IMG/VR virus record: IMGVR_UViG_2740892115_000002
Length of the DNA: 12,568 bases
Source of the DNA: a virus
Taxonomy: Duplodnaviria; Heunggongvirae; Uroviricota; Caudoviricetes
Reading direction: 5' to 3' (one strand)
Shown: positions 3,841 to 11,338 of the stretch, piece after piece
Layout of the letters: the number at the start of each line of letters is the position of its first letter
Position numbering within the stretch: the stretch's first letter is position 1
The notes under the pieces: model-generated
Databases searched by the model: none
What the model was told of the DNA's origin: nothing
What the model saw: the letters and a program-made list of their open reading frames with translations, nothing else
Position numbers and translations under genes: made by a program

Positions 3841-4896
3841 TTAACCAATTTTGACGGTAACAAATTTGCGAATATCTGCCGGAACCGGCTGCGGTGCGCT
3901 GTGCGTCTGCACGTACTCAATCGCCGGATCGCCGTCCTCAATCCAGTTTTTCGGGTAAAACATGTTTTGCGTTGCGCCCGTTCTTACTGCGTCCTGATCC
4001 ATAATCGCACCATAGGCCACCAGCCCTTTATTGTTGGTGTTGCCCAGGACAAGCAAATCAGGCTCAAGGAAATATTTTTCTGTGCCGTCGCTGTCAGTGT
4101 ATTTGCCGGAATAGACGATAAGGGCAATATCGCCCAGATAGCCTTTAAAGCTCACCACTTCGCCCAGGTTTTTACAGGCCAGCTCTGCGGCGGACTCTGA
4201 ACCACGGGAAAGATCGTACAGCTCACGGAATTTTTTAAAGCTGCGTAACGTTCGCCATACCTCAGCGCCCATAATCATGACGTTTGCGGGGCAACCAGCC
4301 TGATCGGCGTATAGTTCGATATCATAGATTGGATCGTGGGTTTCTTTGTCCTGCTCTGACCATTTTTTCCCGTCGGCCTGCTCTATGATGTTTTTTTCCG
4401 GTATCTTCCAGTCGATTTCATAGCGCTCTATGCCTTCGCCTTCAATGATGTTTTTTCCGGTCGTTACCGCATTTACCGCCAGCCATTCCACGCGCGCTTT
4501 TATGGCGTTTATCTGGCGGCGCATATTGCCAGTAATCAGGCGCATACGGCGATAGGTAGGGTCGTTAAGCTGTGCCGGATCTTCTCCAGCCATGCGCATG
4601 ATGGTTTTCGTTGGATCGATTTCGTGCTTTGGCTTCATGTAGCCAGGTTTAATCGTGCTGGTTTCGTACCCTTTATCGCGCTGAACCTGGCTACCCACCA
4701 TAGGCGAACAAAACGCCGACATGGTGACTTCTTCAATGTCCAGGGTATCCAGCATGATGTTTTGCGTGCTGAATGTCGCCACGTTCGGGAAAAACAGCGT
4801 GGTAAACAGCGGACTGAATTTAAATTCCGCAATATCCCCGCGATTCAGGTACGCAAAAAGCTGGTTAGTGTTAAGTGCCATTGCTTTTACTGTCAT
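3841..4896 (-). CDS. Major capsid protein, lambda gpE-like (351 aa)
   Basis: Multiple conserved blocks shared with lambda gpE as recalled: FKFSPLF..LFF, KPGYMKPKHE, EDPAQLNDPTYRRMR, WSEQDKETHDP, RGSESAAELACKNLGEVVSFKGYLGDIALIVYSGKY, VLGNTNNKGL.AYG, YPKNWIEDGDPA, SAP. Start overlaps the upstream ORF stop (TAATG). Confidence 0.88.
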   Translation of the reverse strand: MTVKAMALNTNQLFAYLNRGDIAEFKFSPLFTTLFFPNVATFSTQNIMLDTLDIEEVTMSAFCSPMVGSQVQRDKGYETSTIKPGYMKPKHEIDPTKTIMRMAGEDPAQLNDPTYRRMRLITGNMRRQINAIKARVEWLAVNAVTTGKNIIEGEGIERYEIDWKIPEKNIIEQADGKKWSEQDKETHDPIYDIELYADQAGCPANVMIMGAEVWRTLRSFKKFRELYDLSRGSESAAELACKNLGEVVSFKGYLGDIALIVYSGKYTDSDGTEKYFLEPDLLVLGNTNNKGLVAYGAIMDQDAVRTGATQNMFYPKNWIEDGDPAIEYVQTHSAPQPVPADIRKFVTVKIG

Positions 4897-5265: not shown

Positions 5266-5305
5266 AAGCCCGATAAGCCACCTCTGACCTTATCGGGCTT
5301 TTTTA
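5266..5305 (+). terminator. Plus-strand rho-independent terminator with no annotated plus-strand gene upstream
   Basis: Stem aagcccgataag / cttatcgggctt with an 11-nt loop, followed by TTTTTTAT on the plus strand. Confidence 0.5.
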
Positions 5306-5469
5306 TCTGCCTGCAAAGATGTCGAACAAAAATTAACCACAACCATCATCTTTTTTGCATCAAAACAATTAAAAACAATAAATTACGCTCATGATGATGA
5401 TGACGATAAAATCACAAAAATGCGCTTTTTTCCGCGCTTCCCGCCCCGTGTTCAGGCCCACCCCGCCAG

Positions 5470-5492
5470 GAGGACCCGTAAAAAAGCCGGAT
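5470..5492 (-). terminator. Rho-independent terminator after ssb
   Basis: Stem gccgga/tccggc with loop ttgc, followed on the minus strand by a U-run (plus-strand A-run 5470-5476). Nearly identical in sequence to the terminator at 3040-3062. Confidence 0.7.
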
Positions 5493-5517
5493 TGCTCCGG
5501 CTTCTGTCTCTCGTCGC

Positions 5518-5940
5518 TTAAAACGGTATGTTATCCCCGTACGGATCATCATTCCCCGCCTGTTGTTTTGCCCTGTTCAGCGCGTCAGTAGCCTGGCCCT
5601 GTTGACCTTTTTTGCCGCCCAGTCGCGCCGTTCGCGCACTGATTACACTGTCTGCGATAACCTGCCAGCCCTGCCGCGTTTCTCCGTTCTGCCCAGTCCA
5701 CTGGCTGATCTGCATGTTACCCGCCACGCTCAGGAGTTCACCCTTGCGGTGCCTTTCCAGTGCTTCGGCCTGTCTGCCAAATGCCAGGACGGATAACCAC
5801 ATCGTCGCCGTTCCGTCATCTGCCTGGCTGCACGGAAGGGGGACCGCCATACGCGCCAGCGTCATCGGTGTGCCCTTGCTGGTCTGTTTTACCTGCGGGT
5901 CGTCCACCAGCCGCCCGTAAGCTGCTATCTGTGCTGTCAT
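5518..5940 (-). CDS. ssb: Single-stranded DNA-binding protein (SSB-like, 140 aa)
   Basis: OB-fold-like N-terminal region with SSB-like blocks (LSVLAFGRQAEALERHRKGELLSVAGNMQISQWTGQNGETRQGWQV), Gly/Gln-rich linker, and acidic C-terminal tail ending DDPYGDNIPF, comparable to the DDDIPF tail of E. coli SSB. Confidence 0.8.
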   Translation of the reverse strand: MTAQIAAYGRLVDDPQVKQTSKGTPMTLARMAVPLPCSQADDGTATMWLSVLAFGRQAEALERHRKGELLSVAGNMQISQWTGQNGETRQGWQVIADSVISARTARLGGKKGQQGQATDALNRAKQQAGNDDPYGDNIPF

Positions 5941-6503: not shown

Positions 6504-8258
6504 TTATAAAAACGCGTCGCACTCGTCTGTTGTTATTGCGTTAGTCTGCGTTACCCCCTTAACTTTCCGCGTAATATATTCATGTCCGTAAACTTTTGCG
6601 GCAGGCTTCATAGCCTTTCCAAAGTCATTTACGTTTAGCGGTTTGCTCCTGCCTGCGTATGCCATAAACGCCAGATAGACGCGGTAAAGGCTGTTCCTGG
6701 TCGTGTACTTCACTGAATCGCCACCGCCCCCCATCATCAGGCCGCGCGCTTCCTCCAGAAAATTCAGGAACTGGCAAAACTCAATAACCGGATCCGTCTG
6801 TTGCTTTATTGCCAGTGCTTCATCACCGTCACGCTGTTCCAGTAGTAAAGCCCGTGCCTTCTCAGGGTCGGTAAAGTTCGCCAGCAATCGGCGGATAATG
6901 ACAGGGATTTCAGCCGCGATCTTTTCCGGTAGCTCCCTGTCTTTTTCGGCCTCACTGACGATATTGTCGAAACGGAAAATCACGCGACGACGTGCCACAC
7001 CTCCGGCCCGTTCGGTGAATATCATCGGGTTATTGTTGGTCGCCAGCACCACCGCCCTGATTACAGCCGTGAAACGCTTTTCGTATTTCGGGTTAATTTC
7101 CACGGGGTCACCGCCCGTGATTTTCTTGATGCCCGTTCCTTCGCCTGTATATTTCGGCTGGTCAGCCAGGACGATAAGACGACTCCCGACAACCTGCGCA
7201 CGTCCACCAGCATCATCAAGCGATGTCATTTCAGCGCTTACCGTGTTCTGTTTCCCTGCCAGAAGGCTGGCTATGTGCGTGAATGTACTTTTACCGCTCC
7301 CGCCGTCTCCGGTGGCCTCAATAAACATCTGCCAGTCGTACCGGTTCGCCATAATCATGTACAGCGCGGCACATATACGCATCATCTTGCGCGGGTCTTT
7401 TCCGGCTGCGTGCTCAAGCCATTTATGAAAGTTTGGCGCGTTATCGCGGATGTTCTCCCCTGGTGCTGGTGGCGTGTACTCAATGCCGTTGTGCGTGGTG
7501 ATCCAGTTCTCCGGCGTGTGCGGGGAAAATCCCCCCGTTTTCAGGTCAAGCGCACCATTGGCGAACGGCAGCAAATCGCCGGACGGCTCGCCCATTGGTT
7601 CGGCAATAACTTTTAACGCTTCCACGGCGTTATTGATTACGCGCTTGCTGAAAGTGGCCCTGTGCTCTGAATAGATCGCCACCATTTCGCGGCTAAGTTC
7701 CATTGTGCTGACCGGACACCATACCCCGCCGCGCCATACGTGAACGATTTCACTTTCAGGATGTACGCAAACGCCATCAAAGCGATCGGCAAGCAGCTGC
7801 GCGCGCTCACTGTCCGCCATCTGCGAAAGTTGCGCCTTTTGCTTTACCGGAAGCTCAATGACCAGACCATCAGAAAGATTCTGGCGCTCACGGGCCAGAT
7901 ATTCGCGCCAGTTCTCCACCTTCTGACCGTGCATACCATCAGGGTAAAAATTTGCATCCTGTACGCCTGCCGCCGCCAGCTTCTGGCCAATCGCCTTTAT
8001 CATTACTGGCGCAAGATATCCGGCCCTGAATATGCGCACGGATTTTCTGCCTTCCGGCACAATTTGCAGCTTATCCAGTTCTGATAACTGCTGCTCCCCA
8101 AGCCACACAGGAGGCTCATTATCTCCGGCCATACGCGCATCATGTTCCTGCCATTGTTTCGCGTGTGCCCAGGCATCACTACCCGCAAAAATAATGACTT
8201 CTGTTCCTTTGTGTTTTATGCCGCGTGACTGCTGTTTTACGTTCGGTGCCAGTTTCAT
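6504..8258 (-). CDS. Replication initiator, P4 alpha / D5-family primase-helicase-like (584 aa)
   Basis: Walker A motif GDGGSGKST and downstream D5/P4-type helicase-like blocks. Size and position (upstream of iterons) fit a pri-rep gene. AGGGG Shine-Dalgarno-like sequence; start overlaps the upstream ORF stop (ATGA). Confidence 0.8.
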   Translation of the reverse strand: MKLAPNVKQQSRGIKHKGTEVIIFAGSDAWAHAKQWQEHDARMAGDNEPPVWLGEQQLSELDKLQIVPEGRKSVRIFRAGYLAPVMIKAIGQKLAAAGVQDANFYPDGMHGQKVENWREYLARERQNLSDGLVIELPVKQKAQLSQMADSERAQLLADRFDGVCVHPESEIVHVWRGGVWCPVSTMELSREMVAIYSEHRATFSKRVINNAVEALKVIAEPMGEPSGDLLPFANGALDLKTGGFSPHTPENWITTHNGIEYTPPAPGENIRDNAPNFHKWLEHAAGKDPRKMMRICAALYMIMANRYDWQMFIEATGDGGSGKSTFTHIASLLAGKQNTVSAEMTSLDDAGGRAQVVGSRLIVLADQPKYTGEGTGIKKITGGDPVEINPKYEKRFTAVIRAVVLATNNNPMIFTERAGGVARRRVIFRFDNIVSEAEKDRELPEKIAAEIPVIIRRLLANFTDPEKARALLLEQRDGDEALAIKQQTDPVIEFCQFLNFLEEARGLMMGGGGDSVKYTTRNSLYRVYLAFMAYAGRSKPLNVNDFGKAMKPAAKVYGHEYITRKVKGVTQTNAITTDECDAFL

Positions 8259-9229: not shown

Positions 9230-9449
9230 GTACCCCTCCGCATTTTTTTTCGTTAGAAATAAGCGTTCTTCTTTCCTGTTCATCGCTCAGGAATACGCAG
9301 ACCTCACCGCTAAGGCGTTTAAGTAAGCCGATGATTGCCCCTGATTCGCTGTCGGTCATCATGCCAGGGTAATCCTCTGCCAGTGCGCAAATAACTTCGA
9401 TTTGGTGGGCGCGTTCTGCTGCCTGTTGTAGTGTGATTTCCTGGCTCAT
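9219..9449 (-). CDS. Hypothetical 76-aa protein
   Basis: ORF whose start overlaps the stop of the upstream frame (ATGA at 9446-9449), part of the tightly coupled operon. Confidence 0.5.
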   Translation of the reverse strand: MSQEITLQQAAERAHQIEVICALAEDYPGMMTDSESGAIIGLLKRLSGEVCVFLSDEQERRTLISNEKKCGGVHVQ

Positions 9450-10732
9450 AAGCCTACCCCCTGACGAATACGGGCAGCAAATACCATCACGCAGCCAGCC
9501 GGAGATTGCTGGCGTGCTTCCTGTTCGCTGGTGGCCTCAATGGTAATCACGCGCGGTTGTGCCGTGCTCAGGGCGATAAAACGCCAGATGTATTTATTCA
9601 GGTTGTGCGAGTCCCGCCCTTGCGGGTGTGTGGTATGATTTAACATAGCTACCTCGATACTTTCGCTATCGTTGGTGGTTAGAAGCCCTGCGAGTGGTAA
9701 CGACACTTGCGGGGCTTTGCATTTATGCACCTTGATAATCTCAAGGTGTGGCCCACTATATGCTTTAGGTGTGGCCCACGTCAAGGGTTTTATTTGTGCT
9801 TTTTCTGTGTATACTGTCCCCCACCAATCCAACAGAGGAATAGAAATGGCAACGGGTACAACAAACGCAAAATCACAAGCTCTAAAGGCTCGTGTACCAC
9901 ACGAAATAGTAAACGCCATGGAATCAGTGAAAGAATCAGGCGAAAGCACATCACAATTCATCATTGCGTCAATGCAAGGCGAGATCAAACGCCGCCAGCG
10001 CCGCAAGGCCAAAGAGCAGGAGTAACCATCACCAGCGCCGTGGTGTGAGTAACTACGGCGCATTGCTATGCAGGACAACACAATGACCGATAAAGAATTG
10101 ACCAAAACATTATCACCGGCACGGAAAAGACGGCGCAGAAAGATAGAGCATGAATCAGAAAGATTCGCGCCATGTGCTTTTGCCCTTGAGCAATTCCTTA
10201 AAGAGTACAGGGAAAAGCGCTCATTGCAGGTATGGCAACGAACTGAACCTGACTGATTGCATTGCCCACCAGCCGCAAATGTGGCATTGTTGGCAATGCT
10301 CATGCGTTGGGGATAACGTGTAGCTTGTGTCGAGGGGCCACCGTAGCGGGTGGCCTTTGTTTTGCCCGTTATTCGGCAATTGTGGCGCTTCTCCACATGG
10401 TTGATATAATCCCACTGCTCAGATTCATTTTTTGCGCAGTAGGTTAATTGTTCACAAAGGCGCTCCGGCAACGGGGCGCTTTTTGTTTTTATTAGTTTGT
10501 AGAAACCTGACTCAGAGATAATGCTCATATTCTGATTGCCGTCAGGGGTGTAAGTTAAATTTACTCCCTTTTTATCATCAAACATCTGCAACGCTCTGGC
10601 GTTAACAATATTGGTTTCACTCCCGCCAGTAAGGCCGGAAATAACCGGAATAATTTCGGCAAAATTTTGCAGATTCTGTTTTTCAGGACGAACGAAGCCC
10701 CGCCCTTGTTCGGGAGAATATCCAGTATTCAT
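9446..10732 (-). CDS. Uncertain 428-aa open frame; likely a real N-terminal domain (about 115 aa from 10732) and/or a short C-terminal gene (possible start 9643, 66 aa), with the middle unlikely to be coding
   Basis: The N-terminal part has normal protein-like composition (NLTYTPDGNQNMSIISESGFYKLI, faintly like phage antirepressor N-domains). The central part is Cys/Arg/Ser-rich and antisense to two plus-strand small ORFs with good Shine-Dalgarno-like sequences. No in-frame stop until 9446. Confidence 0.3.
   Translation of the reverse strand: MNTGYSPEQGRGFVRPEKQNLQNFAEIIPVISGLTGGSETNIVNARALQMFDDKKGVNLTYTPDGNQNMSIISESGFYKLIKTKSAPLPERLCEQLTYCAKNESEQWDYINHVEKRHNCRITGKTKATRYGGPSTQATRYPQRMSIANNATFAAGGQCNQSGSVRCHTCNERFSLYSLRNCSRAKAHGANLSDSCSIFLRRLFRAGDNVLVNSLSVIVLSCIAMRRSYSHHGAGDGYSCSLALRRWRRLISPCIDAMMNCDVLSPDSFTDSMAFTISCGTRAFRACDFAFVVPVAISIPLLDWWGTVYTEKAQIKPLTWATPKAYSGPHLEIIKVHKCKAPQVSLPLAGLLTTNDSESIEVAMLNHTTHPQGRDSHNLNKYIWRFIALSTAQPRVITIEATSEQEARQQSPAGCVMVFAARIRQGVGL
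9744..9779. promoter_or_regulatory. Divergent control region with two direct 13-bp repeats AGGTGTGGCCCAC (9744-9756, 9767-9779)
   Basis: Repeats 23 bp apart in the intergenic region between the minus-strand small-ORF operon and the plus-strand RHH-like gene. A TATACT -10-like hexamer at 9811-9816 lies upstream of the plus-strand ATG at 9846. Confidence 0.5.
9846..10025 (+). CDS. Small ribbon-helix-helix-like DNA-binding protein (59 aa), candidate island repressor or regulator
   Basis: AGAGGAA Shine-Dalgarno-like sequence 5 nt upstream of the ATG. Sequence pattern of a beta-strand followed by two helices (KSQALKARVPHEIVNAMESVKE...STSQFIIASMQ) and a basic tail RRQRRKAKEQE. Family assignment is by pattern only. 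Confidence 0.5.
   Translation: MATGTTNAKSQALKARVPHEIVNAMESVKESGESTSQFIIASMQGEIKRRQRRKAKEQE
10083..10256 (+). CDS. Possible small basic protein (57 aa from the ATG at 10083; the ORF is open from 10068)
   Basis: AGGA 7 nt upstream of the ATG at 10083. Contains an RKRRRRK stretch. Weak support. Confidence 0.3.
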   Translation: MTDKELTKTLSPARKRRRRKIEHESERFAPCAFALEQFLKEYREKRSLQVWQRTEPD

Positions 10733-11254: not shown

Positions 11255-11313
11255 CCGTTGTTCCATTTTGTTCCTTGTTGTTCGTCGTTGTGTCTCGTTG
11301 TTTCACGTTGTCC
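11255..11313. repeat. Six tandem copies of a CGTTGT-containing unit at about 10-bp periodicity, directly 3' of the integrase gene
   Basis: ccgttgttcc / ttttgttcc / ttgttgttcg / tcgttgtgtc / tcgttgtttc / acgttgtcc, with units starting near 11256, 11267, 11277, 11286, 11296 and 11306. A related GT-rich set (ggttgtgtc, gattgtgtc) lies at about 11025-11055 near the alpA 5' region. Confidence 0.6.
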
Positions 11314-11338
11314 GCATCCTGAAAAATCGCAAAAAAAA

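Follow-up and report, generated by a model that had tools for sequence, protein, structure and literature searches.

EcCICFT073 is the prototype of the Gram-negative phage-inducible chromosomal islands (PICIs). The paper that founded the group describes an activator only, AlpA: helper phages raise the expression of alpA, and overexpression of AlpA alone leads to excision and replication (PMC6092414, Fillol-Salom et al. 2018). In the Gram-positive PICIs, by contrast, Stl keeps the island silent until a helper-phage protein removes it (PMC6092414). Later papers repeat the AlpA model, one of them describing PICI genes as mostly unidirectional (PMC10111431), and no repressor for islands of the EcCICFT073 type is described in the papers that could be searched, which name the AlpA activator only. 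We analyzed a 12,568-nucleotide stretch of Caudoviricetes DNA (IMG/VR record IMGVR_UViG_2740892115_000002; hereafter, the window) and, within it, the interval between a leftward operon that runs from an icd-like gene to a primase gene and a rightward gene for a protein of 59 amino acids. Judged from its alignment and gene content, the window is a PICI of the EcCICFT073 type. Over positions 9400-10300 it shows 100% identity to E. coli CFT073 (NC_004431, 1380198-1381098), and also to a dozen other strains; the whole window is about 97% identical to CFT073, so its source would be a close relative of that strain. The RefSeq annotation of CFT073 places the region in an island between phoQ and roxA that includes genes for an integrase (int), an AlpA-family regulator, a P4-type primase, SSB, a major capsid protein, and a head decoration protein.

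The immI region of phage P22 encodes the ribbon-helix-helix (RHH) repressors Arc and Mnt and has the divergent promoters Pant and Pmnt and the sar antisense RNA. It is the closest analogue of our interval in that small RHH repressors on divergent promoters are combined with an antisense RNA, and the best reading of the interval, from sequence comparison, is an autoregulated repressor-operator switch with a cis-antisense RNA similar to immI, in which the 59-residue protein quite probably binds the repeated sites and represses the leftward operon. The immI layout, operators over divergent promoters of which one expresses the RHH repressor, was found here with predicted promoters. There are also differences. 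Similarity to Arc is marginal (hhalign probability 20%) and there is no match to the Pfam Arc model; one RHH gene is present rather than two, three 11-bp sites take the place of a 21-bp operator, and the element is a satellite, not a phage. The operon that would be silenced carries replication functions and an Icd-like protein, whereas in P22 it is the antirepressor that is controlled.

Other described systems share parts of this arrangement. Like the omega repressor of pSM19035, the protein would be an RHH protein acting on repeated short asymmetric sites, direct or inverted. However, omega sites are contiguous 7-bp heptads while the units found here are 11 bp long and spaced 22-36 bp, the two proteins have no sequence homology, and omega serves plasmid copy number and partition instead of satellite replication. 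Stl and Rpr, from the staphylococcal pathogenicity islands (SaPIs) and other Gram-positive PICIs, are also encoded divergently from a replication and packaging operon near int, and the role proposed for the protein is theirs as well, to keep the island at rest as long as no helper phage is active (PMC6092414). The 59-residue protein would be their functional counterpart, and the placement of the operators predicts repression, but Stl is a much larger helix-turn-helix protein inactivated by a helper-phage protein, while the protein considered here has 59 residues and a predicted RHH fold; the mode of relief is probably unrelated too. With c4 of P1 and P7, located upstream of icd-ant, and with the CI RNA of P4, the interval shares a small structured RNA and an operon starting with an icd-type gene in a P4- or PICI-like element, and matches to C4 and isrK have been reported in some Gram-negative PICIs (PMC10111431). 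Those RNAs are processed from the strand of their target and act through short complementary boxes; the candidate described below lies on the opposite strand and is complementary along the leader.

Predicted operators and the protein that may read them

The original prediction placed two copies of a repeat between the leftward operon and the 59-residue gene and likened the arrangement to a repressor-operator switch. Both copies of AGGTGTGGCCCAC are present (9744-9756 and 9767-9779, + strand), the flanking genes are as it described them, and the sequence occurs nowhere else in the window even when two mismatches are allowed. The 23 bp given as the distance between them is correct from start to start; the gap between the copies is 10 bp. 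The similarity reaches 22 nt at 82% identity (9735-9756 against 9758-9779). When the window was shuffled and this 13-mer was sought with up to two mismatches, the mean was 0.30 matches and 8 of 200 shuffles gave at least two, so in the window alone the repeats are only moderately convincing, and it is the comparison between loci that decides. A profile of 36 homologues yielded 65 loci from one-genome-per-species contigs of Enterobacterales, to which further E. coli loci were added afterwards, so that 70 related loci were compared. In 60 of the 65 loci, int, alpA, or the icd-like/primase operon is arranged as in the window, and on these comparative data chance is excluded as the source of the repeats.

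The comparison also redefined the unit. What is conserved is an 11-mer, GTG-N5-CAC, the outer triplets of which form an inverted repeat, and there are three copies instead of two, located in the upstream regions of the related loci at -32, -77, and -99 to -113 from the ATG. In the window the predicted operators O1 (9746-9756) and O2 (9769-9779) both read GTG TGGCC CAC, and a degenerate third, O3 (9814-9824), reads CTG TCCCC CAC, with two core mismatches to the others. A promoter scan identified, on the - strand, a leftward -35 TTGACG (9779-9784) and -10 TATAGT (9755-9760; 10 of 12 matches) separated by a spacer of 18 bp. O1 covers the last two nucleotides of this -10 and the predicted leftward start, while O2 occupies the -35-proximal part of the spacer and has one base in common with the -35. 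TTGAnG abuts O2 in 55 of 62 loci and has a TAnnnT 17-18 bp away in 54 of those 55; across loci O1 falls on the -10 and start site or on the first transcribed bases of the leftward promoter. The putative rightward -10, TATACT (9810-9815, + strand), has no good -35 and was assigned by its fixed position: almost every related locus has a -10, usually TATACT as well, at -36 from the ATG. O3 overlaps this -10 and the predicted rightward start, and the -32 copy begins with CTG because it has two bases in common with the -10. From general promoter biology, all three sites are positions at which a bound protein would be expected to exclude RNA polymerase.

In related loci the 11-mer at the O3 position has the same core as O1 and O2 of that locus. 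The TCCCC core is seen in the window, to which CFT073 is identical here, and in strain MBT-5 (L067, 1859-1869), and in three other genera with TGGCC operators (L002-L004) the third copy is perfect. Because O3 is degenerate, autorepression may be weakened in this E. coli lineage.

At least 15 classes of operator core were found. The 5-bp core varies between loci while the copies inside one locus are alike, and such concerted change requires a common reader. Among 52 unique loci, each motif at residues 11-15 of the RHH protein corresponded to one core or to its variants of one or two nucleotides, for example QALKA or QSLKS with TGGCC, KKLEA or RKLEA with TCAGC, QMTTV with AAATA, QQLNA with AATCG, and LQVSV with AACAC. 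The rule was checked on four additional E. coli loci that had operator classes unlike that of the window and had not been used in deriving it. In E. coli A20 and E105 (L068 and L069) KKLEA was accompanied by TCAGC at all three sites, in Nissle 1917 S12 and T14 were found with TCTTA-type sites, as in L007, and one added locus represented a new core class, TTGAA. The likeness to a repressor-operator switch is thereby strengthened: the sites lie over the core of the leftward promoter, the third lies over the -10 and start of the small gene, and their core tracks residues 11-15.

Since the gene adjoins the sites, linkage had to be excluded. In 25 pairs of loci the first leftward open reading frame (ORF) is at least 80% identical, yet the cores differ in at least three of five positions, and in 88 pairs the core is the same, yet the leftward ORF is less than 35% identical. 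On the other side, AlpA identity and core distance are essentially unrelated (Spearman -0.05). By these alignments linkage is broken on both sides of the RHH gene. The window and A20 (L068), compared over 9719-9980, match in the icd-like gene (98%), in the leader and antisense RNA region, and in the last 15 residues of the RHH protein, whereas the stretch from just after stem-loop 2 to about residue 45 is replaced (TCAGC and KKLEA in A20). The segment from O1 to about residue 45 looks like an exchanged specificity cassette. Several genomes have more than one module: Xenorhabdus innexi has L011, L040, L045, and L053, and eight other genomes have two or three. None of 18 co-resident pairs had a common operator class against 2.35 expected, a difference that is not significant (permutation P=0.07). 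Avoidance of this kind would fit immunity groups but is suggestive only, and was not used as evidence.

The gene of the protein (9846-10025, + strand) is preceded by a good ribosome-binding site, GAGGA, at 9835-9839. Its product is a member of the YlcI/YnfO family (NCBIfam NF041551; E=7.9e-19 and 67.4 bits over residues 9-50, where the cut-off is 30), is named likewise by RefSeq in CFT073, and corresponds to phrog_949, of unknown function; a literature search on YlcI/YnfO returned no paper giving the family a function. AlphaFold2, run with a 36-sequence alignment, returned a model (pLDDT 90.2) with an extended N-terminal segment and helices at 19-28 and 35-58, that is, the strand-helix-helix topology of about 45 residues typical of the RHH superfamily (CopG/Arc/MetJ). 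The RHH-like character assigned to this protein in the original prediction therefore agrees with the predicted fold. A G-x-S/T/N turn between the two helices is a hallmark of RHH proteins, and a turn G32-E33-S34 precedes helix 2, with E33 invariant and S34 nearly so among the 36 homologues. Residues 12 and 14 have the highest variability in the folded part (2.59 and 2.41 bits) and lie between the invariant K9, S10, R16, and P18. An hhalign comparison with Arc aligned KSQALKARVP with KMPQFNLRWP over 24 columns (E=0.0012, but a probability of 20%), and with Mnt gave E=0.098. In this low-probability alignment A12, K14, and R16 fall on Q9, N11, and R13 of Arc. These three residues contact bases in the crystal structure of the Arc-operator complex. 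RHH proteins are obligate dimers, and their paired beta-strands insert into the major groove. By analogy, the variable residues would sit at the base-reading positions of such a protein, and recognition of the GTG/CAC arms could fall to the invariant arginine.

A tblastn search with the protein gave no match among 50,697 phage records, so at the sensitivity of tblastn the module is not common to known helper phages. In E. coli Nissle 1917 (L070, 1400-1705) the homologue is 101 residues long and consists of the RHH domain and, C-terminal to it, an extension of about 45 residues whose end is a similar basic tail; the operators of this locus are partly degenerate.

A candidate structured RNA opposite the leftward leader

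The left half of the interval, the content of which had escaped the original prediction, contains two hairpins conserved in all related loci and probably adds a second layer of control. A cis-antisense RNA about 80 nt in length is proposed for the + strand, from 9647 to about 9728. It would comprise stem-loop 1 (9646-9681), a terminator-like stem-loop 2 (9682-9718), and a U-rich tail, and would be complementary to the Shine-Dalgarno sequence and to most of the 5′ leader of about 100 nt of the leftward operon. The fold in the window has a free energy of -41.6 kcal/mol (z=-6.6). RNAalifold applied to 36 diverse sequences recovered stem-loop 1 and a stem-loop 2 of 14 pairs, with compensatory changes in 15 of 22 pairs, and all five covariation measures exceeded those of 500 out of 500 shuffles and of every slid control. 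The structure is specific to one strand: pairing was retained in 96.7% of alignment cells on the + strand against 82.7% on the - strand, G-U cells numbered 114 against 3, and the + strand fold was the stabler one in 40 of 40 sequences, by a mean of 7.6 kcal/mol. This points to a structure selected on the strand of the RHH gene, antisense to the leftward operon's leader. From the alignment a covariance model was made, and it gave one match each, on the + strand, in 70 of 72 sources, including loci outside its training set; in the window it matched 9633-9730 (+ strand) with 69.8 bits, and matches on the - strand did not exceed 29 bits.

A candidate promoter for this RNA is an extended -10, TGG TATGAT (9631-9639, + strand), which on the other strand falls inside the icd-like gene (codons 3-5). 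A TAnnnT hexamer is found here in all aligned loci (TAGACT, TATGCT, TATGAT, and others; both T invariant, A at least 90%), about 8 nt upstream of the invariant AGC of the RNA, while the residues encoded by the overlapping codons vary. Loci with an insertion that destroys the -35, including the window, have TGn before the hexamer, which makes it an extended -10. An Rfam scan of the window at E up to 1 returned only a chance match to mir-135 and no C4, isrK, or sar-like family, and a scan of 18 related loci at the gathering score returned tRNA and the int-alpA RNA, neither of them in the control region. Thus, C4 and isrK (RF01695 and RF01394) were found in neither set and the candidate matched no Rfam family in the window or the 18 loci. 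On the structural and promoter evidence, we consider it likely that the RNA is made; the chances that it acts as an antisense regulator are about even. In an alternative reading, if termination is leaky, transcription from the promoter of the RNA would run antisense to the operon and would feed the RHH gene as well. Promoter PRE of phage lambda feeds a repressor gene in this way.

The proposed switch and its alternatives

In the switch that we infer, back-to-back sigma-70 promoters would drive the replication operon, from the icd-like gene to the primase gene, leftward and the RHH protein rightward. RHH dimers would bind the three GTG-N5-CAC sites, with the beta-strand residues 11-15, chiefly 12 and 14, reading the core. 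With O1 and O2 occupied, RNA polymerase would be blocked at the leftward promoter and the satellite would stay quiescent, and with the weaker O3 occupied the protein would limit its own synthesis. The RNA of about 80 nt, started inside the first icd-like codons, would pair with the leader and the ribosome-binding site and probably add post-transcriptional repression, and helper phage and AlpA would override the whole. The original prediction saw no cI-type repressor, and none was found in the window. Its suggestion that the small protein is the regulator holds on inferential support, and left unconsidered AlpA, the known master regulator of this type of island.

The interval would have to be reconciled with AlpA in any case. 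The alpA gene lies about 760 bp downstream of the 59-residue gene and the two converge. Between them, terminator candidates on the - strand are weak, the single site of the scan being inside a 57-residue gene, and two folded hairpins are terminator-like on the + strand only. Given convergent genes and weak - strand terminators, transcription driven by AlpA could run antisense through the RHH gene into the operon, and it is a speculation that passage across the RHH gene and its operators is how the override occurs. The wider proposal is tentative, and we hold it to be possible rather than probable: the RHH protein would be, together with the antisense RNA and the three operators, the missing master repressor, or immunity determinant, of Gram-negative PICIs, the 15 or more classes would be immunity groups swapped as a cassette of about 300 bp, and induction by the helper through AlpA would override this cassette rather than be a simple activation.

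A number of observations weigh against the proposed switch. The rest of the protein correlates with operator class too, so phylogeny contributes to the covariation, and the pair K12/S14 goes with two cores, GCACC and GTGGA, which means that residues 12 and 14 alone do not set the specificity. The model from which the fold was called is a monomer, whereas the fold itself occurs only as a dimer; the Pfam RHH, Arc, and CopG models gave no match at E up to 1, so the fold is assigned by prediction and not by family membership, and neither Foldseek against the Protein Data Bank (PDB; nothing below E=7) nor a PDB profile search (nothing below E=0.8) returned a relative. The U-tract after stem-loop 2 is short and interrupted, and the terminator scan flagged the site in L010 but not that in the window. 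Finally, overexpression of AlpA by itself sets off replication of the island (PMC6092414), hence any repressor must be overridable by AlpA, and no AlpA-type motif common to the alpA promoter region and this interval was found.

Other proteins could bind the repeats. If they were AlpA sites, through which AlpA turned on the leftward operon while the small gene was incidental, the need for AlpA in induction, its activation of island genes and of its own promoter (PMC6092414), and the proximity of alpA would all be accounted for. This is nevertheless quite improbable. AlpA identity is not associated with operator class: the AlpA of L002 is 38% identical to that of the window and goes with the same TGGCC core, while that of L005 is 66% identical and goes with a different one. 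The upstream region of the auto-activated alpA contains no copy of GTG-N5-CAC and no common 9-mer or longer, and the -10, start site, and spacer on which the repeats lie are positions of a repressor, not an activator. AlpA was rejected as the binder for lack of covariation and of sites near alpA. For the icd-like protein, or another protein encoded by the leftward operon, it counts that the icd-like gene adjoins the repeats and that phrog_6196 and phrog_1743 are labelled 'transcriptional repressor', but such a protein is extremely unlikely to be the reader: the mosaic loci, namely the 25 pairs with nearly the same leftward ORF and different cores and the 88 with the reverse, led to its rejection, and L002-L004 have the operators of the window without any icd-like gene.

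The RHH protein might also bind the sites without maintaining quiescence. Its main role could be pure autoregulation, establishment or activation, or action as an effector on helper-phage DNA, with the overlap of the leftward promoter secondary. Given a rightward promoter without a -35, and with O2 some 48 bp upstream of the start predicted for it, positive effects are conceivable, and the known interference of PICIs with their helpers (PMC6092414, PMC6739421) counts for a helper-directed role. We regard this as improbable because, in 55 of 62 loci, two of the three operators sit over core elements of the leftward promoter, no homologue was found in the phage records, and the operator cores are private to each module instead of being matched to a common helper. 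Alternatively, the protein and the product of the downstream 57-residue gene could make up a type II toxin-antitoxin pair in which the protein is the RHH antitoxin and the repeats serve only to autoregulate the pair. This is very improbable, and was rejected, for there is no conserved co-transcribed toxin partner: the 57-residue gene lacks a homologue in the 65 related loci and in many of these alpA starts about 240 nt past the RHH gene, leaving no room for one, and the promoter on which O1 and O2 are located is the divergent one, not that of the RHH gene. An alternative that concerns the RNA only is that the hairpins are a single-stranded DNA signal for priming or packaging, or a mere terminator or insulator, with no regulatory antisense RNA. 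Hairpins of single-stranded DNA tolerate G-T wobble pairs as well, and the U-tract in the window is weak; yet the TAnnnT -10 is retained at a fixed distance though the overlapping codons change, stem-loop 1 covaries and bears the anti-Shine-Dalgarno sequence, and the published origin is located downstream of pri-rep, not in this interval (PMC6092414). This alternative is unlikely.

A description of this protein, its operators, or the RNA was not found in the literature, also when the literal operator and hairpin sequences were used as queries, in a search that left most subscription journals outside. The analysis offers a specific candidate repressor, predicted operators resolved to the base pair, a residue-to-base specificity pattern, and a candidate antisense RNA. 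The module is present in satellites across Enterobacterales, and the intergenic region matches, at least partly, 1405 of 5426 complete E. coli genomes. It is relevant to the engineered PICI delivery vehicles built on EcCICFT073 (PMC10530653, PMC10460865), and the natural specificity variants on one small scaffold could serve as orthogonal repressor-operator pairs. If the protein is indeed a master repressor, the operator and beta-strand classes would be immunity groups exchanged between satellites.

Neighboring genes and other features of the island

The icd-like gene (9446-9646, - strand, 66 residues) is in the ORF list, is annotated by RefSeq in CFT073, and matches NCBIfam phage_ICD_like (NF033153, E=1.4e-19). 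It is the first of a series of tightly packed, overlapping leftward ORFs that ends with the primase gene (6504-8258, - strand). PHROGs labels its family a transcriptional repressor (phrog_6196, E=1.7e-44) whereas NCBI calls it a cell division inhibitor. On the other side, the 57-residue hypothetical gene (10083-10256, + strand; a RefSeq coding sequence, phrog_21027, function unknown) is probably co-transcribed with the RHH gene upstream; with no homologue among the related loci, it is not a conserved part of the module. The rightward transcript likely ends at a weak hairpin followed by a T-run (10333-10365, + strand; -18.5 kcal/mol, then UUUGUUUUG; z=-1.6).

An open frame of 428 codons on the - strand (9446-10732) is free of stops through the entire control region. 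It was rejected as a real gene and considered a composite, and the RefSeq annotation of CFT073 has no such gene. It joins a Bro-N-like remnant, the complement of the two small genes on the + strand, the intergenic region, and, in frame, the icd-like gene. The Bro-N-like remnant has a Pfam match of E=0.0085 and weak PHROG anti-repressor matches, and is a pseudogene in the RefSeq annotation of strain MBT-5. On the + strand, a perfect extended -10, TGATATAAT, at 10401-10409 is followed about 50 nt on by a strong terminator (stem 10456-10483, then TTTTTGTTTTT; z=-5.0), the region extending to 10490. Another small RNA, about 75 nt long and antisense to the Bro-N-like ORF that lies downstream of alpA, could be made from this unit (10401-10490), and L054 has a comparable unit of promoter and terminator just past alpA (4583-4665).

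Compared with EcCICFT073, positions 5305-5611 of the window do not align to CFT073, which has a gene for a PerC-family regulator there (L001, 5892-6140), and there are also several indels near phoQ. The Rfam int-alpA RNA (RF02996) was detected in 8 of the 18 related loci scanned (L002, L015, L021, L028, L029, L033, L049, and L061), with 42-63 bits and between int and alpA, and was absent from the window also when E up to 1 was allowed. Just downstream of int, positions 11255-11315 contain GTTGT-rich repeats spaced by about 10 bp (CGTTGTTCC, TTTGTTCC, TTGTTGTTCG, CGTTGTGTC, CGTTGTTTC, and CGTTGTCC), which may be recombinase or AlpA sites near the end of the island.

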